This document shows positions 1,424 through 16,722 of a stretch of DNA of 57,495 nucleotides, piece by piece; position 1 is the stretch's first letter; the number at the start of each line of letters is the position of its first letter. The notes under the pieces are model-generated. The model was not told the origin of the DNA and did not search any database. It was given only the letters and a program-made list of their open reading frames with translations. A program made the position numbers and the translations under genes. This DNA comes from a virus. Lineage: Duplodnaviria; Caudoviricetes. The DNA is taken from positions 1 through 57,495 of the IMG/VR virus record IMGVR_UViG_3300044742_000040, one strand, 5' to 3'.

Positions 1424-1434
1424 CGGTCACGAAA

Positions 1435-1548
1435 ATGCGGAGAGTGTACGTCAGGTCGAATACGTCGTCGTGCGGGATTGAAGCCCCGCGTCCCATGACT
1501 GAAAACAGGGATCAGCCTGGTATCCACCGATCCGTACACTCTCCGTAT
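1435..1548 (+). ncRNA. Long-stem-enclosed structured RNA element
   Basis: ATGCGGAGAGTGTACG (1435-1450) pairs with CGTACACTCTCCGTAT (1533-1548); internal hairpins. Confidence 0.55.
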
Positions 1549-1582
1549 AAATCTTCAGGAGAGAGAATCGGAACAATGAGAA

Positions 1583-2119
1583 TTGAAACTCAAAGCCGTT
1601 ATGATACTACTGTGTACAGTGGTAATTGTGGGTTCTCTCGCAGAAAGCAATCCTCGCCAATCAGTAGTTGAAAGACACAGCGAGATACTTGAGACAGAGT
1701 TGGTAGTTTCACAACTTCCCCCACTTGCTCAGGTAAAGCTGTTAACACAGTCTCTAGTCACCCTAGCAACATTCAAGGCAAACAAGTATTGGGGTGGCAC
1801 TCGTTGTACAAGTATCAAGTACAACTACCATTTGCTACCGGATAGTCAGATAGCAGCAGCACGATGGTATTCGTACAAGCGAAGTTCTGCTAAGTATTTC
1901 CAGTGTTCAGTTACGTTCAACACCAATCCTCAGAAGGTAGAGATATCCTTCTACCATTACTGCGGTGCTCTGATCCATGAGTTTGGTCACCTTGAGGGCT
2001 ACCATCAGATAGGTGGACTGGACGATGGATCGCATGCGCGTAACAAGCGGAACATCATGTATCCTGTGCTGTCGGATGCCAATATCCCCGAAACGTGCAA
2101 GGCACGAATATTTCCGTAA
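1583..2119 (+). CDS. Exported metzincin (matrixin-like) zinc metalloprotease
   Basis: Hydrophobic N-terminus; HEFGHLEGYH zinc motif; downstream NIMYP Met-turn. Confidence 0.75.
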   Translation: MKLKAVMILLCTVVIVGSLAESNPRQSVVERHSEILETELVVSQLPPLAQVKLLTQSLVTLATFKANKYWGGTRCTSIKYNYHLLPDSQIAAARWYSYKRSSAKYFQCSVTFNTNPQKVEISFYHYCGALIHEFGHLEGYHQIGGLDDGSHARNKRNIMYPVLSDANIPETCKARIFP

Positions 2120-2135
2120 CCAAGGGAGATACAAA

Positions 2136-2369
2136 ATGAGCGACACAATTCGTATGGAGATTGAGCTTGAAGACCAGTCAGATAAGCCGCCGACAATCCT
2201 GCTAGGTTTTGAGATTGGATCGGCAACGCTAGATGATGGTCGCAAGCTCAGCATTACAGGATCAGGTAGAAAGCTTCGGTTTGAAGTCTTCAACACCGAG
2301 AGTCGCAAGATGATCAAGCAGTATGATCTTGACCTGACTCCGATTGCATCGGAGGTTGCACACCGATGA
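2136..2369 (+). CDS. Hypothetical protein
   Basis: ATG 2136 after ACCAAGGGAG RBS. Confidence 0.7.
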   Translation: MSDTIRMEIELEDQSDKPPTILLGFEIGSATLDDGRKLSITGSGRKLRFEVFNTESRKMIKQYDLDLTPIASEVAHR

Positions 2370-2569
2370 GATACTCATGGACACAGCCGTGTTGCATGTC
2401 CTGTTGGGATGAAAGAAATCCGAATCGTCCAGCAATTCAAATGCGTGCGCCTACCCGCGTACTTGAAACTTGCGTGTATTGCGGTAGCGATACTAACGAT
2501 GGTATCTACGTTCGTCTTGATCCATCAACCGCACCGCATCCTACGTTGACCAAGGATGAAAGTATATGA
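2366..2569 (+). CDS. Small Cys-rich (zinc-finger-like) protein
   Basis: CxxC...CxxC; ATGA coupling. Confidence 0.65.
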   Translation: MRYSWTQPCCMSCWDERNPNRPAIQMRAPTRVLETCVYCGSDTNDGIYVRLDPSTAPHPTLTKDESI

Positions 2570-2874
2570 TCGACCAAGCTACATGCAGGCTATACGTGGG
2601 CGGCACAGTCGAGGTAGAATTAGAGGATCGTGTCTATCCTGACCGCACGTGTGGACAGTACGAGGCAGGATGGTGGGTCTACGATGTTGACGTTGCACCC
2701 GACAAGCATCCGATTGAATACTTCATGAGCGAGTCGGGAATTCTGTATGACTTTGACATTGTATCCGGCAGCTTCACACACCCCTGTGGGATTTGGCCGA
2801 AGCAGGCTCGCCGCATACGTGAGCAAGAAGCAAAGGACGAGCTAATCGAACGGAGCTTCGATGCCTACCGTTAG
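2566..2874 (+). CDS. Hypothetical protein
   Basis: ATGA overlap, fits operon. Confidence 0.6.
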   Translation: MIDQATCRLYVGGTVEVELEDRVYPDRTCGQYEAGWWVYDVDVAPDKHPIEYFMSESGILYDFDIVSGSFTHPCGIWPKQARRIREQEAKDELIERSFDAYR

Positions 2875-3037
2875 TAGCGATATTGTGGATGCCATTCAAG
2901 ATTTCGGTATCGCAATCCTGATCTTTTACGTGATTCTGATTCACAACAAAATGTTGGATATGCAAGATGATATCGAGCGTATCCTAGAATCCAAATGGTT
3001 TCCAGAACCAAGGGAGGTAAGTGAAGATGAAGTATAA
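2861..3037 (+). CDS. Small membrane protein, 58 aa (not in ORF track)
   Basis: MPTVSSDIVDAIQDFGIAILIFYVILIH...; GGAG RBS; one TM segment. Confidence 0.55.
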   Translation: MPTVSSDIVDAIQDFGIAILIFYVILIHNKMLDMQDDIERILESKWFPEPREVSEDEV

Positions 3038-3419
3038 GGAAGCACAGGAGCTTGCGGCAGGTCTGCGTGAGCTTGCAGATTTCGTGGATGCTCATGGAGT
3101 TGAGCTTCCCACGTTTACGCTTAATTCAACGTACAATTTTTTGTACGATGACTACAACGGTCGTACTGCGAAAGAGAAGGCACGTATCTGTGCCAAGACT
3201 CTCGCTAAGGGTGGCCGCGCCGATAAGAACTTTGAAGGTAACTATCTTGAGTTGTCTCGGAACTTCGGCCCGATCAAGGTTGAGTTCAATGTCGCACGTG
3301 AGCAAGTCTGCAACAAGCGTGTTGTGGAAGTTATTGAGCATCCCAAGCGCGTGATTAAAGCATGGAAAGAGGAAGTTGTCGAATGGGATTGCATCGATCC
3401 CCTGTTGAAAGCGAGCTAA
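3027..3419 (+). CDS. Hypothetical protein
   Basis: RBS ACCAAGGGAGGT; start GTG 3021 or ATG 3027. Confidence 0.75.
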   Translation: MKYKEAQELAAGLRELADFVDAHGVELPTFTLNSTYNFLYDDYNGRTAKEKARICAKTLAKGGRADKNFEGNYLELSRNFGPIKVEFNVAREQVCNKRVVEVIEHPKRVIKAWKEEVVEWDCIDPLLKAS

Positions 3420-3421
3420 AT

Positions 3422-3751
3422 ATGAAAGAACTAGCTAAGAGTCATTGGTCGCCACCTGATACAGTTTCAAGTAGAGAGGCTGACGTGTTCGACCATAAGC
3501 ATAGGGATCGTGTGGATTTCCTAAATCCTATCGCTATGTCACAACTTCAGACAGCGGTGAAAGCAAAGAAGAAAACGGTAATCCTCAACGGTGAGAAGTT
3601 CGACATTACCTATGGGATTATCTATCACTCCAAAGTCACAGAGGATTACGAGCAGATCAAGCTTAAGCGATCCGATGGAAGCTATGCGCCTATGGCTTAT
3701 GTGAGACTAAGCAAGATTCTCGCGTATGACTTTGAGGAGGATAAGCGGTGA
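3422..3751 (+). CDS. Hypothetical protein
   Basis: ATG just after upstream stop. Confidence 0.6.
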   Translation: MKELAKSHWSPPDTVSSREADVFDHKHRDRVDFLNPIAMSQLQTAVKAKKKTVILNGEKFDITYGIIYHSKVTEDYEQIKLKRSDGSYAPMAYVRLSKILAYDFEEDKR

Positions 3752-4041
3752 GCGAGGCTGAGCCGCTGTTTGAAGTAATCAGCGGAGACGAGTTTCGCAA
3801 GGAATCAATCTCGCGTACAAGACGTGAGGTTGTCACGGAGCCAAGACTTCAGACGATATGGTTTGCACTACCGACAGAACCAGGGTGGTGTACTGTCCGT
3901 ATTCATAAAGAAATACAAAGTTTGCTATCCCCGGAGAAACGTGTGATACGTGATCAATACCCGGTGAGACATGTCTTTGAGATTAGTCCTGGCTTGTTCG
4001 TATGCCGAGATTGCTTTATGGCCGAGGCTGACAAGGAATGA
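3748..4041 (+). CDS. Hypothetical protein with N-terminal LFEVIS motif and C-terminal CxxC
   Basis: GAGGAGG RBS, GTGA overlap. Confidence 0.7.
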   Translation: MSEAEPLFEVISGDEFRKESISRTRREVVTEPRLQTIWFALPTEPGWCTVRIHKEIQSLLSPEKRVIRDQYPVRHVFEISPGLFVCRDCFMAEADKE

Positions 4042-4499
4042 AAGTCATTGTTTTTGAAAAGGAAAACAGTCTGCGTGTTTTAGTGGATGATGAAGATTAT
4101 CCACTCCTGTCTCGGCACAAGTGGTATCCGATGCGTGTGCGTCAGAGTGATAAAGTGTATGCACAGCGTAGAGTCACGTCATTTTGCACAGAACTAATGC
4201 ATCGCTTAATACTTGGTATGCCTCCATCCGGCATGGTTATCGATCATATCAATAACAATGGTTTAGATAACCAGAAAGAGAATCTGCGCTTTCTACTAAA
4301 TGCCGAAAATATCCGACGACGCTACGAAGATAACCCTGATACGGGTATCAAGCTCAAGGTGGATAAAATCGAGAATCCGTGGCAAGCGCAGGTTTCTCTA
4401 GGTGGTAAAACTCGTCACGTGGGCTACTTTCCAACTAAGGAAATTGCTATAGCCGCACGTGATAAAGCTATTGAGGACTATCTTCGGGAGAACCAATGA
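4038..4499 (+). CDS. HNH endonuclease with AP2 DNA-binding domain
   Basis: MHRLI...IDHINNNGLDNQKENLR; C-terminal WQAQV...HVGYF...AIAARD. Confidence 0.9.
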   Translation: MKVIVFEKENSLRVLVDDEDYPLLSRHKWYPMRVRQSDKVYAQRRVTSFCTELMHRLILGMPPSGMVIDHINNNGLDNQKENLRFLLNAENIRRRYEDNPDTGIKLKVDKIENPWQAQVSLGGKTRHVGYFPTKEIAIAARDKAIEDYLRENQ

Positions 4500-4948
4500 A
4501 CGAGACTCCCACCATCTTCTATCATATGACTCGCATGTACGACGAACTTGAGTCACGTGCAGCACTTGACAGCGATGGTAAACTAAAGTTTGAGGGATCG
4601 AAAGTTGAAGCCTTCCGCGCTCTGAACGTGAGCCAGGGCTATTACACAGAGATATTCGACTCCCTCACAGAGATGGGTTGTATTGAGCAAGTGAGGCGTG
4701 GAGCAGGGCATCAGGGTACCGTGATCTTCCTGCACCACAAACCCACGATGGATCAATTTACACAAATCTATCGGGGTGTCTTGACAAAAGCCTCCCCGCT
4801 TGATACGATCCGTCAACAGATAAACGACGTGAACAGGAGGTTGCCTGACATAGACCTTAAGAGTTTCATTTTGAGTCTTGATCAGAGGCTAGGAGCAATC
4901 GAGGCGCGACTAGACCAGATCGAGCGCAAGGCTAAAGGGAGGAAATAG
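4496..4948 (+). CDS. Hypothetical protein, possible winged helix plus coiled coil
   Basis: Helix/wing-like pattern LTEMGCIEQVRRG; heptad C-terminus. Confidence 0.6.
   Translation: MNETPTIFYHMTRMYDELESRAALDSDGKLKFEGSKVEAFRALNVSQGYYTEIFDSLTEMGCIEQVRRGAGHQGTVIFLHHKPTMDQFTQIYRGVLTKASPLDTIRQQINDVNRRLPDIDLKSFILSLDQRLGAIEARLDQIERKAKGRK
4781..4809 (+). promoter_or_regulatory. Internal SigA-type promoter upstream of the 5005 gene
   Basis: TTGACA-17 nt-TACGAT with extended TG. Confidence 0.6.
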
Positions 4949-5004
4949 ATTTGCCTCGTAGACGTAGTACACAATCCACAAGCACTACAAACGAAGGAGA
5001 GACA

Positions 5005-5343
5005 ATGAGCGATACGGCAGTCGAGAATCTCTTTGAGGAGATTTCGGCAGACGAGTGGCGCGAGGAGGGTGGCGGCGGCTCTGCGGAGCGTGGCCTCTAC
5101 ACGAAGGTTCTCGTTCAGTTCCACACTGGCGGTAAGCGGTATGCACGGATTCCGATGAATCGTGGCGTGTTCAATGGAAAGAAGTCTTCCTCGGTTGCTA
5201 CGGCACTGAAGAATGCGAAGGATTCCAAGAACGCACCTGACGGACTCGACACGATCAAGGTGTCTTCGCGTGGCGCGAATGACGAGAAGGGTATCGTCGG
5301 AATGGTGTTCCTTGAGAACACCGCTGTTTCGGACGAGAGCTAA
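5005..5343 (+). CDS. Putative small DNA-binding protein with LFEEIS N-terminal motif
   Basis: AAGGAGA RBS; basic alpha/beta core; function inferred. Confidence 0.65.
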   Translation: MSDTAVENLFEEISADEWREEGGGGSAERGLYTKVLVQFHTGGKRYARIPMNRGVFNGKKSSSVATALKNAKDSKNAPDGLDTIKVSSRGANDEKGIVGMVFLENTAVSDES

Positions 5344-5357
5344 TCTCACTTAGTTGA

Positions 5358-5606
5358 ATGAAGGGTGTCATGCAAAATTACGAGGCAAGTAGCGTGACAC
5401 CCTTTGTTGAAATAACGGAGATTAACATGTGGCAACTCAATTATCATAACCGTCCTGACTTTCTCGATTATTTCGAGGACGAGCAGGACTACGTGGATGC
5501 CATGTTCATTCTCATTGTCTACCAGAACTTCGGCATCCTGCTTCGGCAGGATATGCTGATGCAAGATTGGGAGCCGACGGGCGACCATAGGGGTGTGGCT
5601 GAATAA
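5358..5606 (+). CDS. Hypothetical acidic protein
   Basis: ORF track; start could be 5370. Confidence 0.5.
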   Translation: MKGVMQNYEASSVTPFVEITEINMWQLNYHNRPDFLDYFEDEQDYVDAMFILIVYQNFGILLRQDMLMQDWEPTGDHRGVAE

Positions 5607-5615
5607 CGTCAGCAC

Positions 5616-5742
5616 GATGGCGTAAAGCACTACCGGCTCAGACATGAGTTCTCCGAATGGGGGAAACGGTAGGTTTCGGGGTTATTGATTATCTAATGGT
5701 AATCGTGCCCCCGGTTGTGGGTAAATCCATAATCCCACCATC
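5616..5742 (+). ncRNA. Multi-branched structured RNA candidate
   Basis: GATGG/CCATC closing stem; CTACCG/CGGTAG three-way junction; CGGGG/CCCCG and GTTGTGG/CCATAAT stems; intergenic. Confidence 0.5.
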
Positions 5743-5757
5743 CCACTAATTTCTAAG

Positions 5758-5839
5758 TTCGGGGGTAATGACGAGTACGGAGTTATGGCGACTAGCTCAG
5801 CGGCCAAGTCCATGACCGAGGAAAGGCTTTGCCCCCGAA
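5758..5839 (+). ncRNA. Long-stem-enclosed structured RNA element
   Basis: TTCGGGGGTAA pairs with TTGCCCCCGAA; inner GTTATGG/CCATGAC stem. Confidence 0.5.
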
Positions 5840-5865
5840 GTTTGTGAGCGACCAAGGGAGGTTAC

Positions 5866-6126
5866 ATGCTCACGTGGGACGAGACAAAAGCGGCTGTGCA
5901 TGAGGCACAGACAACTAGCAAAGAGGATTTTGAGCGGCATCTTGCAGACTATATCGTGCAGGATGCAGTCGGAAAGCTCATCGATGATTACGTGAAGATC
6001 ACCTTTGCGCGGTACGGTGGAGTCAATGAGGAAACTGCCGAAATCGTAGCTCACGAAGCTGCAATATTTATGACCGGAGTGCAGGTTGGCTGGTACATGG
6101 CCGAGCATGCATTCAAACGATCATGA
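5866..6126 (+). CDS. Hypothetical protein
   Basis: RBS ACCAAGGGAGGT. Confidence 0.75.
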   Translation: MLTWDETKAAVHEAQTTSKEDFERHLADYIVQDAVGKLIDDYVKITFARYGGVNEETAEIVAHEAAIFMTGVQVGWYMAEHAFKRS

Positions 6127-7079
6127 GTAGGCATGATCAGGGCTGGCAGTGTGCGCTAGATACACAGATGGATCAGTTGAAGTGGCAGAAGCAACCTTTT
6201 GCCGAGAGACTGACCCGTAACTTCTTTGAAACTGTACTAGAGAAGACGAACGCACCTGCCGGTGCGATAGTTAACGATGTTAACACACTGACCAGAAATA
6301 TCAGTGAAGTCCTGTGGCGTGGTGATACGATGTACGTCACACAGGACATGCAGCACCTAATGATACAAGCTGCACACGATCTGCCTGAAGACTACCGATG
6401 GGATATGCACACTCTACTGTGCCCCTTCGGATTCTGCATGCTAGAGGAAACAATCTATGGCGAAGACGTACACGGTGAGACACTTGGTATGTCTGCAATG
6501 TCATGGAGCCTCTTGCGTCACAGCGATGATCAGCAAGTGCTAGCAATATACTTCTGGACTTCGACCAGTGACGTAGTAGATGCAGTCAATACCAAATTGA
6601 TACCGAAGATGCGCGCAGATGGGTTAGCCATAGGCCCACTCATGCTGAGTCACTACTATCTACTAGGTGACGGAGAAAGCGTGACCCCTGGTAAGGATGA
6701 CAACAACCCACAGGGGAGCGACCTTGTAGATGCAACTCTAGGATTGTTTGCGGCCATGAACATCTTGGCTCACCAGACAATCGGTGAACCTATCAAGCTG
6801 CCGCCCAATCGTGCAAGTCGAAAGCGTTATGCACGTGACTTCACGAATGCGCCAGAGCGTATGATTACACTGATTACGCTACGTCGCAAAACCGCACAGA
6901 AGCAAGACCCGGATGCCCCACCTGTGCCGTGGTCGAGGCGATGGGTCGTCCGTGGTCACTGGCGCAAGCAGCCTGACAAAGCCGGATGGCACTGGACGTA
7001 CATCTACGAATATATCAAAGGCCCGGAAGACAAACCGCTAATCGTCACAGAGCGCAGAGTATTCAACTTCAGGAGATAG
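6123..7079 (+). CDS. Phage protein with C-terminal VRGHWR motif
   Basis: WVVRGHWRKQP...YIKGPEDKP. Confidence 0.8.
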   Translation: MSRHDQGWQCALDTQMDQLKWQKQPFAERLTRNFFETVLEKTNAPAGAIVNDVNTLTRNISEVLWRGDTMYVTQDMQHLMIQAAHDLPEDYRWDMHTLLCPFGFCMLEETIYGEDVHGETLGMSAMSWSLLRHSDDQQVLAIYFWTSTSDVVDAVNTKLIPKMRADGLAIGPLMLSHYYLLGDGESVTPGKDDNNPQGSDLVDATLGLFAAMNILAHQTIGEPIKLPPNRASRKRYARDFTNAPERMITLITLRRKTAQKQDPDAPPVPWSRRWVVRGHWRKQPDKAGWHWTYIYEYIKGPEDKPLIVTERRVFNFRR

Positions 7080-7080
7080 C

Positions 7081-7224
7081 ATGGATGCGCTAGATAAATT
7101 ACGGGAAGCAGCATTGGAAGCTGCTAAGGCAGGTTTCTACGGTGACTATATCGTCGCTGTAGTCCACACGGTACTGATCAAGAACAACGTAACCATGAAC
7201 CCAGGAGAGGACTCGCAGAAGTAG
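7081..7224 (+). CDS. Small hypothetical protein, 47 aa
   Basis: AGGAG RBS; fills the operon gap. Confidence 0.55.
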   Translation: MDALDKLREAALEAAKAGFYGDYIVAVVHTVLIKNNVTMNPGEDSQK

Positions 7225-7225
7225 T

Positions 7226-7453
7226 ATGGATATTACGGTACCTGATAGTGTTTCATTCTACACAGAGGAATATAGGAACGGCATGTGGAAATGGGGTAAC
7301 TACTGCTTCGCGCATGCTGTGCTTCGCGCTCTTGAAAGCGAGCAGATCAAGACGAAACTTGTGGAATCCTATCTTAGTCCTCCGTGCGATGATTGTACGA
7401 ACTTCGGTGACCCACAGTCGCACGAACTCTCGTCTCTCAGGAGGGAGCAGTAG
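7226..7453 (+). CDS. Hypothetical protein
   Basis: ORF track; tight gene packing. Confidence 0.55.
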   Translation: MDITVPDSVSFYTEEYRNGMWKWGNYCFAHAVLRALESEQIKTKLVESYLSPPCDDCTNFGDPQSHELSSLRREQ

Positions 7454-7454
7454 T

Positions 7455-8018
7455 ATGGATATCGAAAAGAAACGCGCCGAGTACATGACGTGGGACAGGG
7501 AACGTCTCGCTGATTACATCATCAATCGGACTCTCAACAATTTCGTAGCTCGCTACGCAGATTATGGGGATGACGAGGATGGTGTTGTCCGTGATCATGA
7601 CAAGCGTATTCCCTATATCGGATGGTTCTGGCGGGACGTAGACTTTGCAAGTAGAGAGCCGTACATTCCGATTGGTAATTGTGGAGAATTCATCGGCTTC
7701 ATGGAGAACAACAAATGGGATTACCCGCAGCGTCGGCTTACTCCCGATGAAGTCAAGCAAGTTGTGGATATCGTGTGTGAGGCTCACCGTCTAAATAGAG
7801 AAGGTGGCTTGCTCTCTGATATCGAGAAGAACACAATTGCCAAGCTTGAGGAATTGTGGCCGGTAATGCAGACGTTCAAGATTGGGACTACGGGCTACTG
7901 GATTTACGGCCCACAGGGACAGGTCGGCCATGCTGACGACGCCGATGCTGCAAACACAATGATCGTAATGCTCCAAGAGGCGGCACCCGGACTGCGCTAC
8001 TGGAAGGAACCAGTGTAA
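7455..8018 (+). CDS. Hypothetical protein
   Basis: GGAGGGAG RBS before ATG 7455. Confidence 0.7.
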   Translation: MDIEKKRAEYMTWDRERLADYIINRTLNNFVARYADYGDDEDGVVRDHDKRIPYIGWFWRDVDFASREPYIPIGNCGEFIGFMENNKWDYPQRRLTPDEVKQVVDIVCEAHRLNREGGLLSDIEKNTIAKLEELWPVMQTFKIGTTGYWIYGPQGQVGHADDADAANTMIVMLQEAAPGLRYWKEPV

Positions 8019-8082
8019 TCGTTTTCCGTTCTGGCAACGCAGATTTCCGCGCGCATTTTTTCTAGGATTTAGGAGGGTAGGT

Positions 8083-8256
8083 ATGGCTAAGCGAACTAAG
8101 ATCATAAAGGTCAAGGGTCACTACCGTTCGATCCCTGACGAATCGACTGGACATTTCTATACCGATAGACTCGGACACGAAGTCTACATCGTCAAGATGA
8201 AGAAGATATACGTAAAGGGATACGACAAGATTGTGGTATACGACGATGGTACTTGA
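8083..8256 (+). CDS. Small basic protein with VKGHYR motif, 57 aa (not in ORF track)
   Basis: AGGAGG RBS; MAKRTKIIKVKGHYRSIP... Confidence 0.7.
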   Translation: MAKRTKIIKVKGHYRSIPDESTGHFYTDRLGHEVYIVKMKKIYVKGYDKIVVYDDGT

Positions 8257-8278
8257 TAATTCAACTCAGGATGGCGGC

Positions 8279-8620
8279 ATGGAAGCTGACGAATTTTATG
8301 GGATGGCGAAGGAACCAGGCTTTCCTGATGAAATGATCTTTCAGATTCACGCAGCGAATCCAAAGAATGAAGGTACGTTCTCCCGTGAGGGTATAACTGA
8401 CACAGTTGAACTCATGGACGCCTTCATCATGGCGCGTGTCTTTGCGACTTGGAAGAAAACAGGGAACCCACCGAAGCATATGAAGATGCATGTCAAGATC
8501 GAATGGGAACCTGAAACTAACATTGCTTTGCAGATCGGTGATATTCCCTGGTTCGATGGCGACCTAGCTGGCAACGGCTTGACACAGGTAGATGGGGAGA
8601 ATAGAATCCCTCGCGCATGA
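8279..8620 (+). CDS. Hypothetical protein
   Basis: ORF track; start uncertain. Confidence 0.6.
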   Translation: MEADEFYGMAKEPGFPDEMIFQIHAANPKNEGTFSREGITDTVELMDAFIMARVFATWKKTGNPPKHMKMHVKIEWEPETNIALQIGDIPWFDGDLAGNGLTQVDGENRIPRA

Positions 8621-8736
8621 TCCGCAATCGAAAATGGCTATGGCTTGTGCCCGCCATATTCGTACTAGATTGGATAATTGGCCTGATCCTCATAGCTTGG
8701 GAAATCAATCTACTTAGAAAGATGCTTGACAACTAG
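8617..8736 (+). CDS. Small membrane protein, 39 aa
   Basis: ATGA coupling; MIRNRKWLWLVPAIFVLDWIIGLILIAW. Confidence 0.5.
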   Translation: MIRNRKWLWLVPAIFVLDWIIGLILIAWEINLLRKMLDN

Positions 8737-8754
8737 GTAGCTTCATGCTAACGT
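8726..8754 (+). promoter_or_regulatory. SigA-type promoter for the candidate sRNA
   Basis: TTGACA(8726-8731)-17 nt-TAACGT(8749-8754), extended TG. Confidence 0.75.
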
Positions 8755-8759
8755 GCGGT

Positions 8760-8825
8760 GTGTACCTCCCTTGGTACACGCTCAGGAGAGAGTCAGGGGT
8801 ATTCCTGGCTCTCTCCTTCGTTTTA
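8760..8825 (+). ncRNA. Candidate anti-RBS small RNA, ~65 nt
   Basis: Own promoter; hairpin GTGTACC-TCCCTT-GGTACAC; terminator; complementary to the recurrent CCAAGGGAG RBS motif. Confidence 0.7.
8784..8825 (+). terminator. Intrinsic terminator of the sRNA
   Basis: AGGAGAGAGTCAGG/CCTGGCTCTCTCCT stem followed by TCGTTTTA. Confidence 0.7.
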
Positions 8826-8947
8826 TGCAGATTTACAAATCCACGGGGCATCGATAAAAGGGTGGACACTCTCCCCCCTCCCCTCCGCGTACCCCCATGC
8901 GCGGAACCCCTGGAAGGGTGTCTACCCTAGCCCCGTGAGGTCATGCA
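8826..8947 (+). ncRNA. C-rich rod-shaped structured RNA / Rpf leader
   Basis: CACGGGGC/GCCCCGTG, AGGGTGGACACTCT/AGGGTGTCTACCCT and CCGCGT/GCGCGG stems with C-run loops. Confidence 0.55.
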
Positions 8948-8968
8948 ATCTAACAGGAGGTAGCAGTC

Positions 8969-9562
8969 CTGCTAGCTTTCGCTGCCATACTAGTCGTACT
9001 ACTGCTTACCAGTAGTGGCGACGGCCAACAGCAAGCGTCACAGGAAAAGGTCAGGGTAATCGCTAACGGTACTAACGTAAGTAGCGTTAGGCAGGAATGC
9101 AAGTCGGCTGAAAAAGCCATAATTTACTACCGTGGTAAGACATGGAGTTACCAAAGGAAACTAGGTGAGACTCCGCTATCGACAAATCATCCCGAACGTA
9201 AAAAGAACGCTTGTGCATATAAGCGTTTCGTTGTCGGGAATTGGCGCAGACTTGCCAAAGCATACAGACAAGAGTACGCAAAATGGGAGTATAACTACGC
9301 ATGGTGGAAATGGCTCCCCTCCAAATGGCAAAGGATAGCTCACTGTGAAACTAGTAAAGGACACTACGTACCCGGAGACTGGCGACACAACAGTGGTACC
9401 TATCAAGGGGCATTCGGTTTCTACTACGGCACCTGGGACGCATACAAGCCAGCCGGTGCGCCTTCCGAAGCCTATCTCGCCACTCCACGGCAACAGTACC
9501 AAGCTGCCCTTAACGTCTATTCTGACCACGGCTACGGTGCGTGGGGATGCGGCGGGGCGTAG
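8969..9562 (+). CDS. Secreted resuscitation-promoting factor (Rpf)-like lytic transglycosylase, ~197 aa, non-canonical start (not in ORF track)
   Basis: AGGAGG 8955-8960 then CTG; hydrophobic N-terminus; WQRIAHCET...YQGAFGF...TWDAY...ATPRQQ...GYGAWGC. Confidence 0.85.
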   Translation: MLAFAAILVVLLLTSSGDGQQQASQEKVRVIANGTNVSSVRQECKSAEKAIIYYRGKTWSYQRKLGETPLSTNHPERKKNACAYKRFVVGNWRRLAKAYRQEYAKWEYNYAWWKWLPSKWQRIAHCETSKGHYVPGDWRHNSGTYQGAFGFYYGTWDAYKPAGAPSEAYLATPRQQYQAALNVYSDHGYGAWGCGGA

Positions 9563-9622
9563 GTGGCGAAGATTTCTGCAACGTATAGGATACTACAATA
9601 AAGTAGATCGCAAGCCCTGGTA

Positions 9623-10087
9623 GTGTCTGCGGTACCCGACCTAGAGGAGTTTTGTACCTCCTGTGGTGGTTGGGTATCGTATCTTCATTTCAACTACGAT
9701 ACAGGCTGGTGTATAGATTGTTCAGGTTCGATAGATCACCGAGCAAAGTGCATTCACTGTGGCAATGTACTAATCGGAAGCGACCTGTACCGCACTACGT
9801 GTCATACTTGTCGGCAAGAGCTTTGGTTAGAGAAACATGGCGACACGATAGAATTACTCATGATTGTCAGAGGCTACAGTTTTGCACAAGCAAGAGAAAC
9901 CGTAACAGAGCAAGCCCGTCCGATATGCCAAGCCTGTAATAAACCTATCAAGGGTGCCAAGGACGGGGCGCTGTTCCACAAAAGAAATGAGAACAACACT
10001 GCCTGCCATGCAGCGTATCTCAAATTCAAAGTGTTAACGAAGTCGGGCTTGACAATCACGGAAGCTCTTGCTATCATCCGTGGTTAA
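9623..10087 (+). CDS. Multi-CxxC zinc-binding protein
   Basis: Five CxxC motifs. Confidence 0.7.
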   Translation: MSAVPDLEEFCTSCGGWVSYLHFNYDTGWCIDCSGSIDHRAKCIHCGNVLIGSDLYRTTCHTCRQELWLEKHGDTIELLMIVRGYSFAQARETVTEQARPICQACNKPIKGAKDGALFHKRNENNTACHAAYLKFKVLTKSGLTITEALAIIRG

Positions 10088-10105
10088 CCGTACCAAGGGA
10101 GAAAG

Positions 10106-11614
10106 ATGACAGAGCTATTGTTTGAGGATTTGATATCTGACGACCAGTATGAAAAACGAGATTGGCAAGAGAAGGACTTGCGTTACCTCTCGCCGATGCC
10201 ATACTCGGCCAACTGGTCACAGATGGGTTGTTTCAAAACCAGCACAGGATTGTGGCTGCTGGAAAAGAAACGAGTAAAGAACGCTCTTATCATTACGTCC
10301 AAGATGGGCAAGGGTGCGTACTTCTCGGACTTCTATAAGTGTCTGCCGGAATCATGGGAACTGTACAACCTCGGTATCCATGATGCCACGCTACGTATAG
10401 AGGACTTTGAGAAGGATACCACTATCAATGAACTGCTGTACACGATCAAGAGTGGACGGCACAACTACCCAATGGTGGTACTCGCACACTATGACGTGTT
10501 TACTACTGCTGCCAATACCAACTCTGCAAAGAAATCGAAAGATGGTATTGGCATCTTCGACAAGCTGAAGACAATCAAGTGGGATATGATTCTACCTGAT
10601 GAAGCTCACAGGTTGAAGAATCCTAAGACACAATGGACTAGGAATATCAAGAAACTCAAGGCTGAGAATAAGCATATCATGACCGGGACAGGCTTTGTCA
10701 ATAATCCTGCCGAAATGTGGTCACTGCTGAACTTCTTGAACCCTAACGAATTCTCTAGCTATTGGGCATTCCGTAACTACTTCTGCGATCAGTGGATGGA
10801 CGCACGTGGATTCAGATTCATACGTGGTATCCTCCCGCATAGACTTGAGGAGTTTCGTGCCCTACGTAAGAGACTTGGCCCTCGGCATACGATGGCTAAG
10901 GTTCACAGAGGTATTGCGAAGCCAATCGAGAGTGTTCACCCGGTTGAACTCAACGCAACACAGCGCCGTATGTACAATGAAATCAAGACGGTGCTGCGGA
11001 CGATGGATCAGAAGGGTGCCGATCTAACGTCACCGAACGTCTTGAGTCAGCTTAATCGACTGAGGCAGATTTCGGTAGCGACACCGAATGTACTCGGCCG
11101 TGAATTTAGTCAAAAGCAGAACCGTATGGTTACGGATATCGAACTGGTCGAGCCGTCGTCCAAGCTAGATGATGTAATGAAGATTCTTGAGGAGCTAGAC
11201 GAGCCTGAGCAGAAGGTGGTTGTGTTCAGTAACTTCAAAGACCCGCTCAAGCTACTCAAGGTCAGGTTGGATAAAGCCGATATCGGCTACCTACACTTGG
11301 AGCAGCATCATAGTGAATCAGAACGATACCGAATCTGGCACGACCTATTTCGTAAACCCGAATACCAAGTGTTTCTGTCTACCCTCGCATTGGGTGGCGA
11401 GTCTATTAACCTATCCTGCGCTCAGTATCTCATATTCCTCGACAGGTCTTGGTCGCCAAAGGATATGATGCAGGCAATAGGTAGAGTCTACCGACCAGGC
11501 CAACAGCATGCTTGTGAGGTTATCTACATTAACGCGGATCGCACGGTAGATTCCTACGTCAAGACCAAGCTCGATACCAAAGGAAGATGGTTCAATGAAA
11601 TCTTCGGAGACTAA
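10106..11614 (+). CDS. SNF2-like SF2 helicase/ATPase
   Basis: DEAH, TGT, KVVVFS, GESINL and QAIGRVYRPGQ motifs. Confidence 0.9.
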   Translation: MTELLFEDLISDDQYEKRDWQEKDLRYLSPMPYSANWSQMGCFKTSTGLWLLEKKRVKNALIITSKMGKGAYFSDFYKCLPESWELYNLGIHDATLRIEDFEKDTTINELLYTIKSGRHNYPMVVLAHYDVFTTAANTNSAKKSKDGIGIFDKLKTIKWDMILPDEAHRLKNPKTQWTRNIKKLKAENKHIMTGTGFVNNPAEMWSLLNFLNPNEFSSYWAFRNYFCDQWMDARGFRFIRGILPHRLEEFRALRKRLGPRHTMAKVHRGIAKPIESVHPVELNATQRRMYNEIKTVLRTMDQKGADLTSPNVLSQLNRLRQISVATPNVLGREFSQKQNRMVTDIELVEPSSKLDDVMKILEELDEPEQKVVVFSNFKDPLKLLKVRLDKADIGYLHLEQHHSESERYRIWHDLFRKPEYQVFLSTLALGGESINLSCAQYLIFLDRSWSPKDMMQAIGRVYRPGQQHACEVIYINADRTVDSYVKTKLDTKGRWFNEIFGD

Positions 11615-11618
11615 TAAC

Positions 11619-12011
11619 GTGGACTCTTTACCACATATCAGCCAGGACGGTGCGGCTTTCGACTTGGCAAACGTCGAGCAAGGGCTACGGGGTTGCGATG
11701 CCATCTATCCATACGACCAGGATCAGGCTTACCACGGCCTTCACGAATGGGCAGAGCTACTGATCGCGGATCGCAAGCGTCTCCTAGAGCAGTACGAGAA
11801 CGCGGAGACTTCCACCTGTCGTCACTGCGGCCTTGCAGGTTCTAGCACCTGCTGGTGTGGACGGTACGACGACAGAGAGGTAGGAAAGAATCCTACTTCT
11901 GATCCAGCCTCGGAACCCGCTCCCTGGACAACGCTCCATGATGGCGTTCTCGACCACATCGACCGCAAGCGAGCCGAGGGTTCTTCTCCAGCTTCGAGGC
12001 AGGACACATGA
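11619..12011 (+). CDS. Hypothetical protein
   Basis: GGAGA RBS before GTG; CxxC...CxC. Confidence 0.5.
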   Translation: MDSLPHISQDGAAFDLANVEQGLRGCDAIYPYDQDQAYHGLHEWAELLIADRKRLLEQYENAETSTCRHCGLAGSSTCWCGRYDDREVGKNPTSDPASEPAPWTTLHDGVLDHIDRKRAEGSSPASRQDT

Positions 12012-12065
12012 CCAGGTTGTCATTGTAGGATTCCAAGTTAGATGCGAAAATCTATGGGAGGAAGA

Positions 12066-12467
12066 ATGAAAAAGCTACTGATCGGTCTAGCGATTGCAGC
12101 TAGTCTGATTTTCACAGTCGGCGCGAGTGGTGGAGGTTCCGCCACTTACAACATCGTGCTTACGTCGATTGATCCACAGCCTGATCTACAACACTATGGG
12201 ATTGCTCACTTTAATGTAAGCTTCTCAGATGGAAGATTCCATCAGTGCTGTGATTTCGTTCAAGTTGTAACGACATGCGACAATGGCTATACCGAAGGTG
12301 GTGGCCCTGCCAAAACTCTATGGTATACGGCACTCACTCCGATGATCGGTGTATTCTACAAGTACAACATGGTACCAACTACGTGCCATTCGTGGGTCGA
12401 GCGAATCACTGACCATAACAAGCGGCAGGGTGTGACTTCACCTATTGTCACTTACGCTACCGGCTAG
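12066..12467 (+). CDS. Secreted protein
   Basis: Signal peptide MKKLLIGLAIAASLIFTVGA; GGGAGG RBS. Confidence 0.75.
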   Translation: MKKLLIGLAIAASLIFTVGASGGGSATYNIVLTSIDPQPDLQHYGIAHFNVSFSDGRFHQCCDFVQVVTTCDNGYTEGGGPAKTLWYTALTPMIGVFYKYNMVPTTCHSWVERITDHNKRQGVTSPIVTYATG

Positions 12468-12591
12468 TCATGGAAACTCAGAACGAATACAATAGCAACA
12501 TGAAGGCAGGAATCATCATTGCACTGTGTATTGCAGCATCGCTATTTGTCATCGGATTCCTATTTGGTATGGTTGTGGGCGTGTTGCTAGG

Positions 12592-12783
12592 ATGAACCAT
12601 CCAATCTGTCCACGTTGCCAGGAACCAGTTACACGTGATCCGCATGAATTGCAGATGGTTCTCGTTAATGCTCATGAGTCGGCTCCCGAGGATGCAACTA
12701 AACTTCACGCGACATTTCATGCCGCCTGTGCTGGTTTAGTATGGAATGGAACCCGTCGATACTGGTACGGAGAGGATAGGTAA
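12592..12783 (+). CDS. Small Cys/His protein
   Basis: CPRC...HAAC; TAATG coupling to next gene. Confidence 0.5.
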   Translation: MNHPICPRCQEPVTRDPHELQMVLVNAHESAPEDATKLHATFHAACAGLVWNGTRRYWYGEDR

Positions 12784-13751
12784 TGAAAGGCGTTGGCATC
12801 TTCTTTAATATGCTGGAAGACCTAGAGAGATTTGAGGGTCTAACCAAACCTACCGCTACTGCTCCAAATGGTTACATCGATTGGGTAGCACCTATCATGG
12901 CACCCGACCAATCGTCTGTGCAACACAATAGGCCGTTGTGGGCAGAATGGAAAAAGCGTCTAGCGCCAGTCAAGTTTCTCCCGTGGCTATGGTGCGATGA
13001 TCCTGTTGTGGACATTCAAGCGGCAGGATGGATCGCAGATAACTATGAGATTGACGGGATGCTATTCAACTGCGAGAAGCCCTATGAGAGTGCTGGCCGG
13101 TGGAAAGCTTCCGTACTCGTTACTGGTATCATGCAGAATCCAAAGCTTGCAGCTAAGCCAAAGATTCTTTCATATGCAGGCATCGCTGAGATTCAGGATA
13201 TGGACTGGCGAACGTTTGAACGTGGCGGATTTACGTTCGCTCCACAAGCTTACTGGCTTGATCCGCAGAATGCGGCTAATGCCGATGCATACAAACCGTT
13301 CCCATTGTACAAGTCAGCTAACCTACCGAATCAGCTACATGTCGGATGGGACTATCGTATTCAGGTACAGGGAATCGTGGAGAAACATTGGTCGCGCATT
13401 GTTTCCTGGGATGGTGGTATCAATACAGTCGTCAAGGATATCCGTGCTAACAAGCTATATCGTATGCAGGTGGTTCCGCAGCAGGAGGGTGCGTATCACT
13501 ACTTTACTATCGCAGCCAATCGTGCTCTCTTGGACTACAAGACAGGTAAAGTGATAGTTGGTAAGATGCTTGGATTCCAGTCAGTTGACAAGATATTTCC
13601 AACAGTAGGTTACTATCCTGCCTGTCAACCTACACCCACGCAGGTTTCTGATGAACTTGATAGAATCAAGAATCTCAAGGGTGCGAGTCTGTATCTCGGT
13701 GAGACTTCACAATCGGAACACGTGAAGGCAATATGGTCAGCGATTCAGTAG
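12783..13751 (+). CDS. Putative glycoside hydrolase-like (TIM barrel) protein
   Basis: PWLW, DGMLFNCEKPYE, FAPQAYW, PTVGYY and GASLY strand motifs; family uncertain. Confidence 0.5.
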   Translation: MKGVGIFFNMLEDLERFEGLTKPTATAPNGYIDWVAPIMAPDQSSVQHNRPLWAEWKKRLAPVKFLPWLWCDDPVVDIQAAGWIADNYEIDGMLFNCEKPYESAGRWKASVLVTGIMQNPKLAAKPKILSYAGIAEIQDMDWRTFERGGFTFAPQAYWLDPQNAANADAYKPFPLYKSANLPNQLHVGWDYRIQVQGIVEKHWSRIVSWDGGINTVVKDIRANKLYRMQVVPQQEGAYHYFTIAANRALLDYKTGKVIVGKMLGFQSVDKIFPTVGYYPACQPTPTQVSDELDRIKNLKGASLYLGETSQSEHVKAIWSAIQ

Positions 13752-13882
13752 ATTGGCTGAAGCACCTTACTGCCAGGAATGCCCTCAAATGGGGAGGGGT
13801 GATATTCGTTTACTTTATGGCAATCCTATGTATGATCGTGGCAGTACGTATTGTCGTCAGTATCTTCTAGAGAGGATAGAGT

Positions 13883-14473
13883 ATGAAAAGAATCGCCTTA
13901 GCAGTAATGGTCTGTGTCATGGGGGTATTGGGATTGGCTGTAGCTGTCGCCCTAGCTGATCCTCCCCCCGGAGGCCCACCCGGACAGGGTGAGTGTGAAC
14001 ACGGCAATTCTCAGAAGCCGTGCAAGGATGACCCACAACCCAACCACGGACAGGATTGTGACGAACATGGCCCGAATAACGGCGGGGTCAATGAAGATCA
14101 TTGTAAGAATGAAACTACAACGACCGACACTACTACAACTACTGAAACTACGACTACTACGGAAACAACTACAGGAGAATCCACAACTACAGATACAACT
14201 ACAGACGGTACAACGACCACGCAAACGACGACGAACGAGCCGCCTGTAACCACCACGTTCAATGATTCGACAACTATCTCAACTACGACCAATCAGGAAA
14301 CGACCACTAATTCTGAGCCTGTTGTGGCACCGAAGCCTAAGCCGAAGCCGCACCATAAGCCGGTTCACCACTCGCCGGATATTTCTACAAATACCGCTAA
14401 GCAGAAGATGCCACCTGTGTGCCCTGTCGGTAAGCCGACCACGGGTAGCTGCGCTGTACAAGGAAGCGGGTAA
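13883..14473 (+). CDS. Secreted Thr/Pro-rich low-complexity protein
   Basis: Signal peptide; Cys/His head; poly-Thr linker; PKPKPKP. Confidence 0.8.
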   Translation: MKRIALAVMVCVMGVLGLAVAVALADPPPGGPPGQGECEHGNSQKPCKDDPQPNHGQDCDEHGPNNGGVNEDHCKNETTTTDTTTTTETTTTTETTTGESTTTDTTTDGTTTTQTTTNEPPVTTTFNDSTTISTTTNQETTTNSEPVVAPKPKPKPHHKPVHHSPDISTNTAKQKMPPVCPVGKPTTGSCAVQGSG

Positions 14474-14486
14474 GTCAACCAAGCCC

Positions 14487-14515
14487 TTGACTTCGCACCC
14501 TGTCCCTGATAGGGT
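14487..14515 (+). promoter_or_regulatory. Promoter embedded in an inverted repeat
   Basis: TTGACT-17 nt-TAGGGT with extended TG; ACTTCGCACCCT/AGGGTGCGAAGT inverted repeat. Confidence 0.55.
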
Positions 14516-14551
14516 GCGAAGTTCCAAGGGAGAGCAATACCTGAACGGAGG

Positions 14552-15826
14552 GTGATGGCACCCGAAACTGAAATCATTACAAGTACCCCGGACGTTCCGT
14601 CGAAGTGGGATATTATCCCTATCCACGGATCGGACGTTGCAAGTTACAAACGATGCAGACGGTATTGGGATTGGACTAGTCCTAGCCGGAACAACCTACG
14701 CAGGAAAGTGGAGATTCACGGTGTCAACCTACCTCTGTGGTTTGGCACGGGAGTCCACTTCGCACTAGAGCAATACTACGATCCCATCCTACGTCACGAT
14801 CCCGTCGAGTCTTTCAAGACGTGGTTTGAATACCAGTGGGAAGGCGGGATGGTCACAGAGGATTGGCTTGAGCGTACCTATGACGTGAACCCTCGTTATG
14901 GTGGCGACTGGATTGGCGATCCCGGTGACGTAGACACGCTTCACAAGACGTGGCATATTCGCGGTCTAAAGGAAATGCTGCCAAACGTTGAACTTGTCCA
15001 AGAGGATTTCGCTGCACACAAAGAACTCGGCATCGGGATGCTTACCTACTATAAGGAGTATGCCGAGAAGAATGACGAGTTTATTGTGGTCGCCGCTGAG
15101 TCATCGTATTCCATCCCCCTCGGGTTTGAAGCGGTGGACATACGTGAGGACAGCCCCAACTATGGACACAAGAGTGAGGTACACGCACGTGGTAAGCGTG
15201 ACGCTATCATATTCTTCCCCGAACAGAATAAGTATGGCATCATCGACCATAAAACTGCTGTAAGAATTGACGAGGACTACCATAAGAAACTAGAGAAGGA
15301 TGAACAGGTAAGCAACTATCTGTGGGCCACGATGCAGGAAGCAAAGCTGCATGACTATCCGTGGTCAGGGTATCTGGTAGATCGCGTGATCTACAATGCG
15401 CTCAAAAAGAACTTCCCGCATGAACCTACCGTACTCAAGAATGGTATGTTGTCAGTCGATAGACAGAACGAAGGCACTACGGCTGAGCTATTCCAAGCAG
15501 CGATCATTGGCAACGAAGACCGGGAATACTGGTTCCGTCACAATGAGAAGGCTCAGTCGTACTACTCGTACTTGTGTGAAATGGCCGATAGTCTGTTTAT
15601 CGAACGGACACCTGTAACGCGCAATAAGTATGAGGTTCAGGCGACAGGCGACCATCTGGTTATGATCGCTAAGGAAATGATTAGCGAGCCGACGATCTAC
15701 CCAAATCCCACAGGGGAGTTTCGCTGTATACAGTGTGCATTTCGCGCACCATGCATTGCATCCGACGACGGTAGCGATTGGCAAGGTATGCTCGCTGACG
15801 GTTACGAGGTTAACCGTGATCGCTAA
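14552..15826 (+). CDS. PD-(D/E)XK Cas4/RecB-like exonuclease
   Basis: YKRCRRY, FGTGVH, GKRDA, IIDHKT and CIQCAFRAPC motifs. Confidence 0.85.
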   Translation: MMAPETEIITSTPDVPSKWDIIPIHGSDVASYKRCRRYWDWTSPSRNNLRRKVEIHGVNLPLWFGTGVHFALEQYYDPILRHDPVESFKTWFEYQWEGGMVTEDWLERTYDVNPRYGGDWIGDPGDVDTLHKTWHIRGLKEMLPNVELVQEDFAAHKELGIGMLTYYKEYAEKNDEFIVVAAESSYSIPLGFEAVDIREDSPNYGHKSEVHARGKRDAIIFFPEQNKYGIIDHKTAVRIDEDYHKKLEKDEQVSNYLWATMQEAKLHDYPWSGYLVDRVIYNALKKNFPHEPTVLKNGMLSVDRQNEGTTAELFQAAIIGNEDREYWFRHNEKAQSYYSYLCEMADSLFIERTPVTRNKYEVQATGDHLVMIAKEMISEPTIYPNPTGEFRCIQCAFRAPCIASDDGSDWQGMLADGYEVNRDR

Positions 15827-16088
15827 GCTGATCATCTTTGTCATTGCGGGAGTCTTGATAGGATCGACTGCTACAGCATCCGGGTTTGTTTACTGGAAAC
15901 GTGGTGGAGCTACCTATATGTGCGAAGGTACCGGCGTGAGTGTCTTCTGCAAAGAAACGAACTGGAAGCCTGCATATGAAATCGCGTTCATCCCCGGTGC
16001 AGTTGACGTGTCCTATGGTGGACGCCTGATCTTCAACTGCAACCGCAAACAGTCTCCGAATTACAACTGCTCGTACTACGGGAAATAA
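15816..16088 (+). CDS. Small secreted Cys-containing protein
   Basis: GAGG RBS, GTG start, signal peptide, 4 Cys. Confidence 0.6.
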   Translation: MIAKLIIFVIAGVLIGSTATASGFVYWKRGGATYMCEGTGVSVFCKETNWKPAYEIAFIPGAVDVSYGGRLIFNCNRKQSPNYNCSYYGK

Positions 16089-16098
16089 AGGAGAGAAC

Positions 16099-16721: not shown

Positions 16722-16722
16722 C

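Follow-up and report, generated by a model that had tools for sequence, protein, structure and literature searches.

A candidate phage small RNA complementary to a shared ribosome-binding-site tag on the phage's own early genes

The closest described counterparts of the locus reported here are small RNAs (sRNAs) that pair with the ribosome-binding regions of mRNAs. The C4 antisense RNA of phages P1 and P7 (immI) exposes in its loops sequences that can base-pair with the ribosome-binding region of a phage mRNA, the translation of which is thereby blocked, and its specificity, which comes from the matching of RNA and target sequences, underlies the heteroimmunity of P1 and P7 (PMC12197685). The same review also presents lambda OOP and aQ and P22 sar as small phage RNAs that lower phage gene expression by base pairing, and includes VpdS, PreS, 24B_1, sar, OOP, aQ, IsrK, AgvB, AsxR and C4 among the described phage sRNAs, the targets being mostly host genes or single phage genes. 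In Actinobacteria, the 6C sRNA binds with its C-rich loops to G-rich sites at or near the ribosome-binding sites (RBSs) of multiple mRNAs without Hfq or ProQ (PMC6486639). The complete IMG/VR virus record IMGVR_UViG_3300044742_000040 of an uncultured soil phage (Caudoviricetes; 57,495 bp, CheckV completeness 100 %), which was analysed over its whole length and is hereafter called the window, contains at 8726-8827 on the + strand a unit predicted to encode a non-coding sRNA, the hairpin loop of which lies within a sequence complementary to a tag shared by the start regions of eight of the phage's own genes.

The UCCC-motif sRNAs RsaE/RoxS of Firmicutes are further sRNAs with C-rich loops that pair at or near RBSs. 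A start-site sequence, SAS, is known from Cluster K mycobacteriophages, in which 11-19 non-structural genes have, at a distance of 3-9 bp from their starts, a conserved 13-bp sequence with a Shine-Dalgarno (SD) core. According to the Cluster K literature, SAS was described in 2011, shows conservation beyond pairing with 16S rRNA, is restricted to non-structural genes and has a single inverted copy, and its role was still termed ill-defined or unknown in 2024-2025.

The predicted RNA and its start-site tags

The unit starts with a -35 hexamer, TTGACA (8726-8731), read from the sequence, which is followed after a 17-nt spacer by an extended -10 element, TGcTAACGT (8746-8754, with TG at 8746-8747 and TAACGT at 8749-8754). 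Downstream lies hairpin 1, GTGTACC-TCCCTT-GGTACAC, with its arms at 8760-8766 and 8773-8779 and its loop at 8767-8772. The stem has 7 pairs, extendable to 9 (8758-8781), and the loop UCCCUU is unpaired in both the minimum-free-energy and the centroid structure. An intrinsic terminator (8784-8827), the stem of which begins 4 nt after hairpin 1, consists of 15 pairs including one G.U pair (8784-8817), a 4-nt loop and the U-rich tail TCGTTTTATG, and has the highest pair count among 16 terminator-like sites at positions 1-20000. The span between promoter and terminator, 8760-8827 on the + strand, corresponds to a predicted non-coding sRNA of ~64-68 nt. The fold of a 71-nt RNA had an energy of -42 kcal/mol (z -8.27), and none of 200 shuffled sequences folded as well. 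No conserved ORF or peptide was found in the unit, and in several relatives there are stops in all three frames. The elements which the first-pass annotation had named (promoter TTGACA-17-TAACGT, hairpin and terminator, with no ORF inside) were thus all present, the terminator with its 15-pair stem and the -10 element in a weak form that a consensus scanner does not list.

The seed CCUCCCUUGG at 8765-8774 is the reverse complement of the tag CCAAGGGAGG. The exact 9-mer CCAAGGGAG was found in 8 copies in the window, compared to 0.40 expected, and none of 100 shuffles contained as many. Seven copies are on the + strand and one is on the - strand, the latter being hairpin 1 itself. The sense copies start at 2120, 3008, 5852, 10093, 14524, 54625 and 56937, and a shorter form, CAAGGGAGG, is present at 398. 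When the 16-mer core was searched for with up to 3 mismatches, 7 matches were obtained (0.37 expected). All sense tags are on the + strand early arm; the genes on this strand extend from ~54.0 kb through the end-to-start junction of the record to ~26.4 kb, with the - strand genes in between. Seven of the eight tagged sites are located 4-8 nt 5' of a start codon, and the eighth (14524) is in a leader, 19 nt before the start.

All eight tags are on the + strand. The DUF932 gene (416-1423, Pfam) is preceded by the tag CAAGGGAGGTA at 398-408, with 11 nt complementary to the hairpin, and a 77-aa gene (2136-2369), which heads a block with overlapping stops and starts, by ACCAAGGGAG at 2119-2128 (10 nt). 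The longest uninterrupted match, 13 nt, is that of ACCAAGGGAGGTA at 3007-3019, before a gene of 130 or 132 aa (3021 or 3027 to 3419) which heads the coupled block 3383-4948. ACCAAGGGAGGT at 5851-5862 (12 nt) precedes an 86-aa gene (5866-6126) which has a gap of 259 nt upstream and is followed by genes coupled to 8018. The SNF2 helicase gene (10106-11614, Pfam) carries GTACCAAGGGAG at 10090-10101 (12 nt), with a promoter at 10049-10077 directly upstream. The tag CCAAGGGAG at 14524-14532 (9 nt) is in the leader of the PD-(D/E)XK exonuclease gene (14555-15826, Pfam and PHROG). It is near the 5' end of the leader and is not the SD of the exonuclease, the gene's own SD being further downstream, and it is conserved in the related genome G001 at 15273. 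Beyond 54 kb, CCAAGGGAGG at 54625-54634 precedes a 74-aa gene (54643-54867), with 10 nt complementary, or 13 with one G.U pair if counted from 54622, and TACCAAGGGAGG at 56935-56946 (12 nt) precedes a 78-aa gene (56951-57187). The contiguous complementarity that had been proposed between the hairpin core and the RBSs at 398, 2119, 3007, 5851, 10090, 54622/54625 and 56935 and the leader at 14524 was therefore found at every site, with lengths of 9-13 nt. Four further complementary matches of 9-10 nt involve stem-arm sequence only, have no ORF behind them and were counted as chance.

AAGGGAG alone was mildly enriched, with 11 copies compared to 5.2 expected and 2 of 100 shuffles containing as many, and 7 of its 10 + strand copies have the prefix CC. 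The 3' end of 16S rRNA is not known to account for this CC prefix of the tags. Only the flanking CC and one variable position, which in different relatives is A, absent or T, need a partner beyond 16S rRNA.

With Rfam 15 at gathering thresholds, a manA RNA motif (5568-5748) was the sole match in the whole window, and neither 6C nor any other family was matched at the unit; with E values up to 10, the region 8600-9000 gave just three microRNA-model noise matches of 13-17 bits. The manA match, on the + strand, scored 59.3 bits against a gathering score of 55.2, covers the full model and is located inside the 259-nt gap 5' of the tagged gene at 5866.

Loop and tags in related phages

Relatives were collected by searches with the helicase, which gave 8 and then 15 loci at 47-90 % amino acid identity, and by pattern scans, which added metagenome contigs. 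After removal of duplicates, 11 lineages covered the region upstream of the helicase gene, the loci L004 and L057 ending short of it. The unit is present in 11/11 covering lineages, with TTGAC(A/G), a spacer of differing sequence, a TAnnnT -10 element that usually has TG before it, and two hairpins, the first with a CU-rich loop and the second a strong one. TAnnnT is kept in all 11 (as TGCTA in 8, the window included, and as TGTTA in L008), and the second hairpin has an apical part of between 4 and ~40 nt.

The loop UCCCUU is invariant in the seven lineages of clade A, to which the window belongs. When 8 sequences were aligned without gaps, the loop and the closing C-G pairs (CCUCCCU, closing GG) proved invariant and the stem varied. 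This variation is compensatory: one pair occurs as GC, AU, UA or CG and another as UA, AU or UG, and neither is unpaired in any of the 8 sequences. The stem covariation score was 0.545, compared to 0.203 in shuffles, and 79.7 % of stem cells were paired, compared to 62.1 % in shuffles; in both cases 0 of 500 shuffles gave a value as high. Sliding the partner by 1-3 columns abolished the covariation signal.

Three states of loop and tag were found, UU with AA, U with A, and UA with TA. Clade A (the window, G001, G002, G005, L052, L053/G007 and L056/G006) has the core CCUCCCUUGG. In four clade-A genomes, CCAAGGGAG is present 7, 8, 5 and 2 times on the gene strand, and the B-type tag CCAGGGAG and the C-type tag CCTAGGGAG are absent from the gene strand of the same four genomes. 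Two further clade-A genomes have CCAAGGGAGG 4 and 3 times on the gene strand, and L052 has one B-like site, CCAGGGAGG, at 1580. In clade B (G003, G004 and L028, three near-identical contigs), the core is CCUCCCUGG, with one U lost, and 6/6 start-proximal tags lack one A, reading CCAGGGAGG or CAGGGAGG, i.e. (C)CAGGGAGG; A-type tags number 0. Clade C is represented by the 2961-bp contig L034, in which the core is CCUCCCUAGG and the helicase gene is preceded by CCTAGGGAGG. When the L034 helicase was used to look for further members of clade C, all records obtained were of clade A.

The change of state can be followed on single genes. The DUF932 orthologue has an A-form tag in six genomes of clade A and a B-form tag in G003, and the tag of the helicase orthologue is of the A, B or C form in step with the sRNA loop. 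The flanks vary together as well: in L053, the flank GGTAAGG of the helicase tag is complementary to the 5' stem arm CCUUACC, which brings the match to 16 nt, and in L056, the 3' stem arm GGUGAG matches CTCACC before the tag, giving 14 nt in total. When each sRNA was compared with the 500 nt upstream of each helicase gene, the complementarities of the sRNAs to their own genomes summed to 123, a value which 0 of 20000 permutations reached. These data suggest at least four separate co-changes (loss of U, U to A, and two flanks), in lineages which are related to each other and do not represent 11 independent events. The joint change of loop and RBS motif in related phages had been put forward by the first-pass annotation as a check on its idea of one small RNA matched to a shared RBS tag on dispersed early genes of the same phage, and both the presence of the unit in all covering lineages and the covariation agree with that idea. 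In addition, no relative was found that keeps the RBS motif and has lost the hairpin, the case which had been named as refuting. The small RNA appears able to occur without a uniform tag, and the converse, tags without the RNA, was not seen among the relatives.

The promoter spacer of the unit in L053 (2713-2745) itself holds a tag-like CAAGGGAGG, which would be transcribed only by upstream read-through and could pair with the loop in cis.

Searches for the unit outside these lineages added little. An exact 20-mer of the hairpin had 0 matches in IMG/VR. A scan with the promoter pattern gave 7 stretches, 6 of which are relatives already known; L020, with a promoter-like pattern and without the hairpin, was dropped. 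The metagenome scan gave 25 stretches, four of them in this phage group (L028, L030, L034 and L051). Of the other 21, 10 were searched for complementary sites, showed no start-proximal tag and were set aside as unrelated users of this type of promoter, and 11 were read by eye. Five metagenome contigs (L032, L033, L038, L044 and L045) have TTGACA ... TGCTAACGT and, after it, a short hairpin, the loop of which is UCCCCUCCCU. A search of L033, L038, L044 and L045 (up to 14 kb) gave no complementary tags at start sites, L032 having been read by eye only, and this hairpin is possibly an unrelated C-rich-loop RNA.

Proposed action and alternative explanations

The unit combines a predicted promoter and terminator of its own with non-coding sequence, a conserved single-stranded seed and maintained target sites, as would be expected of a trans-encoded sRNA that occludes RBSs. 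We consider it reasonably probable that it encodes a trans-acting, chaperone-independent sRNA of this kind, which would repress translation of the early arm as the RNA accumulates. Host RNA polymerase would transcribe a non-coding RNA of ~65 nt from the promoter at 8726-8754 to the terminator at 8784-8827. The 5' hairpin would show the loop UCCCUU, at which base pairing to the extended Shine-Dalgarno tag CCAAGGGAGG of phage mRNAs could begin, much as in the sRNAs with C-rich loops of Gram-positive bacteria that lack Hfq. The pairing would then extend into the stem arms, to a length of 9-13 bp in the window and of as much as 16 bp in related phages, and the duplex over the RBS would exclude 30S subunits. 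With eight entry sites blocked, translation of most of the early arm (~54.1 kb through the junction to 15.8 kb) may be lowered, and neither the replication genes (16-26 kb), which have no tags, nor the structural genes, which are on the other strand, would be affected. The unit, its conservation, the hairpin and the covarying complementarity are evident from the sequence and the relatives, and from there we infer a discrete RNA species, repression by pairing and, as its purpose, a delayed shut-off of the early genes.

Duplexes of the seed with the tags at five tagged starts (416, 2136, 3021, 10106 and 14555) had calculated energies of -19 to -26 kcal/mol, compared to -9 to -13 kcal/mol with an anti-SD oligonucleotide, assuming a 5' end at 8762, which gives a shorter stem. 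The net gains on cofolding were computed for 5' ends at 8758, 8760 and 8762 and were on average -6.6, -8.9 and -10.2 kcal/mol for the eight tagged starts, and -2.2 to -2.9 kcal/mol for 42 other + strand starts. These gains include the cost of opening both partners and are small at the weakest tagged sites, so that pairing must begin at the 6-nt loop and then invade the stem, as it does in other antisense systems initiated at a loop. In a heuristic list of 110 start regions, some of them false and three tagged genes having been missed and added by hand, the nine top-ranking regions all belonged to the + strand early arm, and none of the plausible structural-gene starts in the list was better than -3.9. 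Most of the tagged genes are preceded by an intergenic gap (16 to 259 nt) and several head runs of genes with stop/start overlaps of 1 or 4 nt, so that, because of translational coupling, occlusion of the entry site should lower entire blocks of genes. The tags are absent from the replication genes at 16-26 kb.

Several observations weigh against this interpretation. AAGGGAGG alone is a good Shine-Dalgarno sequence. The -10 element TAACGT agrees with TATAAT at 3/6 positions, and the promoter at 8726-8754 is for this reason absent from the list of the consensus scanner; the consensus is that of E. coli. The unpaired seed is 6 nt only. With the longest stem, the net gains at the weakest tagged sites fell to -4.2 kcal/mol for the helicase and -2.9 kcal/mol for the exonuclease leader, and hairpin 1 alone gained -1.3 kcal/mol with the helicase leader. 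Of the five stem measures, two (the number of pairs and the number of pair types) did not reach significance, values as high being obtained in 167/500 and 123/500 shuffles, respectively. The independence of the co-changes is limited, clade B being in effect one lineage and clade C one tag in a contig of 2961 bp. In L008 (loop CUCUCCCUGG), the own complementarity within 500 nt upstream of the helicase gene is 6 nt and there are no clear tags, the promoter-proximal gene having the canonical AGGAGG; in L055 (loop UCCCC), it is 8 nt, which does not exceed the level of an ordinary SD, and again there are no clear tags. G008 (L064), with 47 % helicase identity, has the unit in a different genomic place (14069-14190), with TTGACA-17-TATGCT, a hairpin loop UCCUCCCGAGG with CCUCCC and a U-tailed terminator, and no complementary start-site tags were found in this genome. 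Finally, the scanner lists a better promoter at 8579-8607 on the + strand (TTGACA-17-TAGAAT, 11/12), inside the end of the ORF 8231-8620. This ORF overlaps by ATGA with a 39-aa ORF (8617-8736, +), hydrophobic by eye, which ends within the -35 element of the sRNA, so that transcripts from upstream would also enter both hairpins, and the two hairpins could alternatively be the 3' end of a transcript from the promoter at 8579-8607.

The + strand arm contains many small genes and the DUF932 protein gene, and its replication and recombination genes encode the SNF2 helicase, the PD-(D/E)XK exonuclease, an AAA_24 ATPase, a DUF669 protein, a primase and a family A DNA polymerase. No close DNA relative was found among 50,697 deposited phage records and the best matches of the DNA polymerase had less than 31 % identity, so that no cultured relative, and no host, was obtained by that route. 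A tRNA scan found none. The gene 3' of the unit (8969-9562, +) encodes a secreted protein with an Rpf-like transglycosylase domain (PF06737). Its nearest bacterial clusters are from Actinomycetota, which together with the TAnnnT-type -10 boxes suggests that the host probably belongs to the Actinomycetota. The first-pass annotation had stated that the phage has no recognisable integrase or CI repressor. This was checked in part: no integrase, repressor or antirepressor was found among the 40 distinct proteins scanned, in a scan that was not exhaustive. The transglycosylase gene has no ATG, GTG or TTG at a proper distance from its AGGAGG and apparently starts with CTG at 8969; the start codon of the orthologue is CTG in G001, TTG in G002 and ATG in G005. 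Between the terminator of the sRNA and this gene there is a structured element (8839-8941, +), a three-tier hairpin with C-rich internal loops CCCCCCUCCCCU (-59.1 kcal/mol, z -4.79), which could be a 5' untranslated region element or a second RNA. In G001, G002 and clade B, too, there are C-rich structures of this type after the unit, whereas G005 has none. On the - strand, a 213-aa protein (27938-28579) contains collagen triple-helix repeats (PF01391, E 8.8e-11) and is probably a tail fibre component.

The main alternative, which we regard as unlikely, is that the unit acts in cis, as the 5' leader or attenuator of the transglycosylase gene or as the 3' end of the operon before it. Within the same transcript, the anti-SD-like loop might then, for example, sequester the downstream SD or modulate termination, and the tag-bearing mRNAs may be the signal in trans. 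The stronger promoter and the small ORF directly upstream of the unit would fit such an arrangement, as would the region 8828-8968, in which no promoter was recognised, so that the downstream block may rely on read-through; in 130-nt folds of L009, L034 and L053, moreover, the loop region pairs with the AAGGAG-type SD of the downstream gene. That SD is, however, canonical (AGGAGG or AAGGAG) in all lineages and, unlike the dispersed tags, does not change along with the loop (UU/U/UA). The 15-pair terminator only 4 nt after hairpin 1 favours a discrete short RNA, and a cis role could not account for the eight conserved tags, which lie at distances of up to 11 kb in both directions.

Pairing could also take place without repression, if the RNA protects the tagged mRNAs from nucleases, holds them silent until it is displaced or serves in competition during co-infection. 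The covariation of loop and tag applies equally to this explanation, the tag at 14524, which is at the 5' end of a leader and is not an SD, fits a role in stability, and the three loop/tag classes occur among close relatives. A duplex of 9-13 bp on an SD is nevertheless expected to exclude the 30S subunit, as is established for SD-occluding sRNAs, and a comparison limited to free-energy differences gave no inhibitory structure around the tags that pairing might open. We consider pairing without repression improbable, though less so for the non-SD site at 14524.

It is very unlikely that CCAAGGGAGG is instead a DNA site, recognised in either orientation by a DNA-binding protein of the phage or the host, with 8765-8774 as an operator and the covariation reflecting a changed protein specificity. 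The inverted copy is at about +5 to +15 of the promoter, a typical position for an operator, and several tags are just 3' of promoters (10049-10077 in the window, and before the helicase gene in L052, L053 and L056). Seven of the eight sense copies are nevertheless at a fixed distance of 4-8 nt from a start codon and contain GGAGG, which indicates a signal at the mRNA level, and every sense copy is on the coding strand. The inverted copy, in turn, is within a compensatory stem and pairs past the 10-mer with individual tags, neither of which a protein site would need. That the tags are by chance nothing but a strong SD favoured in this group, with a hairpin that just stabilises or terminates a transcript, is the least probable explanation, since the mild enrichment of AAGGGAG alone (11 compared to 5.2 expected) and the hairpins without tags in L008, L055 and G008 would suit it, but the three-state covariation of loop and tag, that of the flanks, the CC prefix on 7/10 + strand copies and the position of the sole antisense copy, exactly in a hairpin loop that is flanked by a conserved promoter and by a terminator, would not.

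Comparison with described systems

A trans-acting RNA of the kind we favour would share with C4 that it is a phage-encoded small RNA with a loop complementary to a phage ribosome-binding region. C4 has one target region, in the ant mRNA, and is part of a temperate immunity circuit (PMC12197685), whereas the window RNA would have at least eight dispersed targets with one tag. The window RNA has a predicted promoter and terminator of its own and targets 1.3-11 kb away on both sides, and no lysogeny genes were found among the 40 proteins scanned. C4 is cut from the same operon transcript as its target. OOP, aQ and sar are encoded on the opposite strand of a single target, to which they are fully complementary, whereas the window RNA is encoded elsewhere, on the strand of its targets, and has a short seed.

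6C is encoded by the host and acts on host genes, at sites not shaped into one tag, whereas here the phage genome itself carries both the RNA and a uniform 10-nt tag, and the two co-evolve. The window RNA also matches no Rfam model, be it that of 6C or of any phage antisense RNA that Rfam contains.

The likeness to SAS is one of architecture and not of sequence: SAS, GGGATAGGAGCCC, had 1 match in the window at 2 mismatches, compared to 0.96 expected. In the available portions of the Cluster K literature that was searched, no RNA partner is proposed for the inverted copy. The right genome half of the Cluster K Mycobacterium phage Anaya contains 15 sense copies of SAS and one inverted copy (L067 29871-29883, record 59870-59882), which is located in the 10-nt loop at the apex of a long hairpin predicted for the 385 bp that separate gp96 from gp97. 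The fold of this hairpin was no better than that of shuffled sequences (z -1.26). Its loop is kept in 5 of 7 aligned, closely related Cluster K phages (Anaya, Angelica, Validus, Niklas and Amelie) and has diverged in Ekdilam and Keshu; Ekdilam has 16 sense copies of SAS despite its diverged loop, which counts against the parallel. Cluster K therefore offers a lead and not a finding.

If loop and tag are taken together, they might form a private, evolvable 'address code', in which the classes A, B and C decide which co-infecting relatives silence each other, and the same logic, with one antisense copy of the start tag shown by a hairpin loop, might explain SAS of Cluster K. This would be an RNA-only analogue of heteroimmunity in a lytic phage, with one RNA switching off a whole translational regulon, and we put it forward as a doubtful, though conceivable, extension of the proposal.

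If the proposal is true, a single phage RNA acting on about eight of the phage's own genes would provide a compact translational timing of the infection programme, without a protein regulator or a chaperone and probably in Hfq-less Actinomycetota. The natural variants UU, U and UA would enable clean compensatory mutation and offer orthogonal sRNA/RBS pairs for synthetic biology. For other start-site motifs of actinobacteriophages, the results suggest the idea of one inverted copy, maybe transcribed in a hairpin loop.

In the literature searched, which comprised openly accessible papers and in part excerpts of them, no phage sRNA is described that has several tagged genes of the same phage as its regulon. 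The view of the first-pass annotation that there is no described equivalent holds within these limits and has to be narrowed, the C4 RNA of P1/P7 and the 6C sRNA being similar and SAS of Cluster K being an analogous tag. The working principle is known from C4 and from 6C, and because it matches no model, has a promoter of its own and has many targets, the window RNA is a member of neither.

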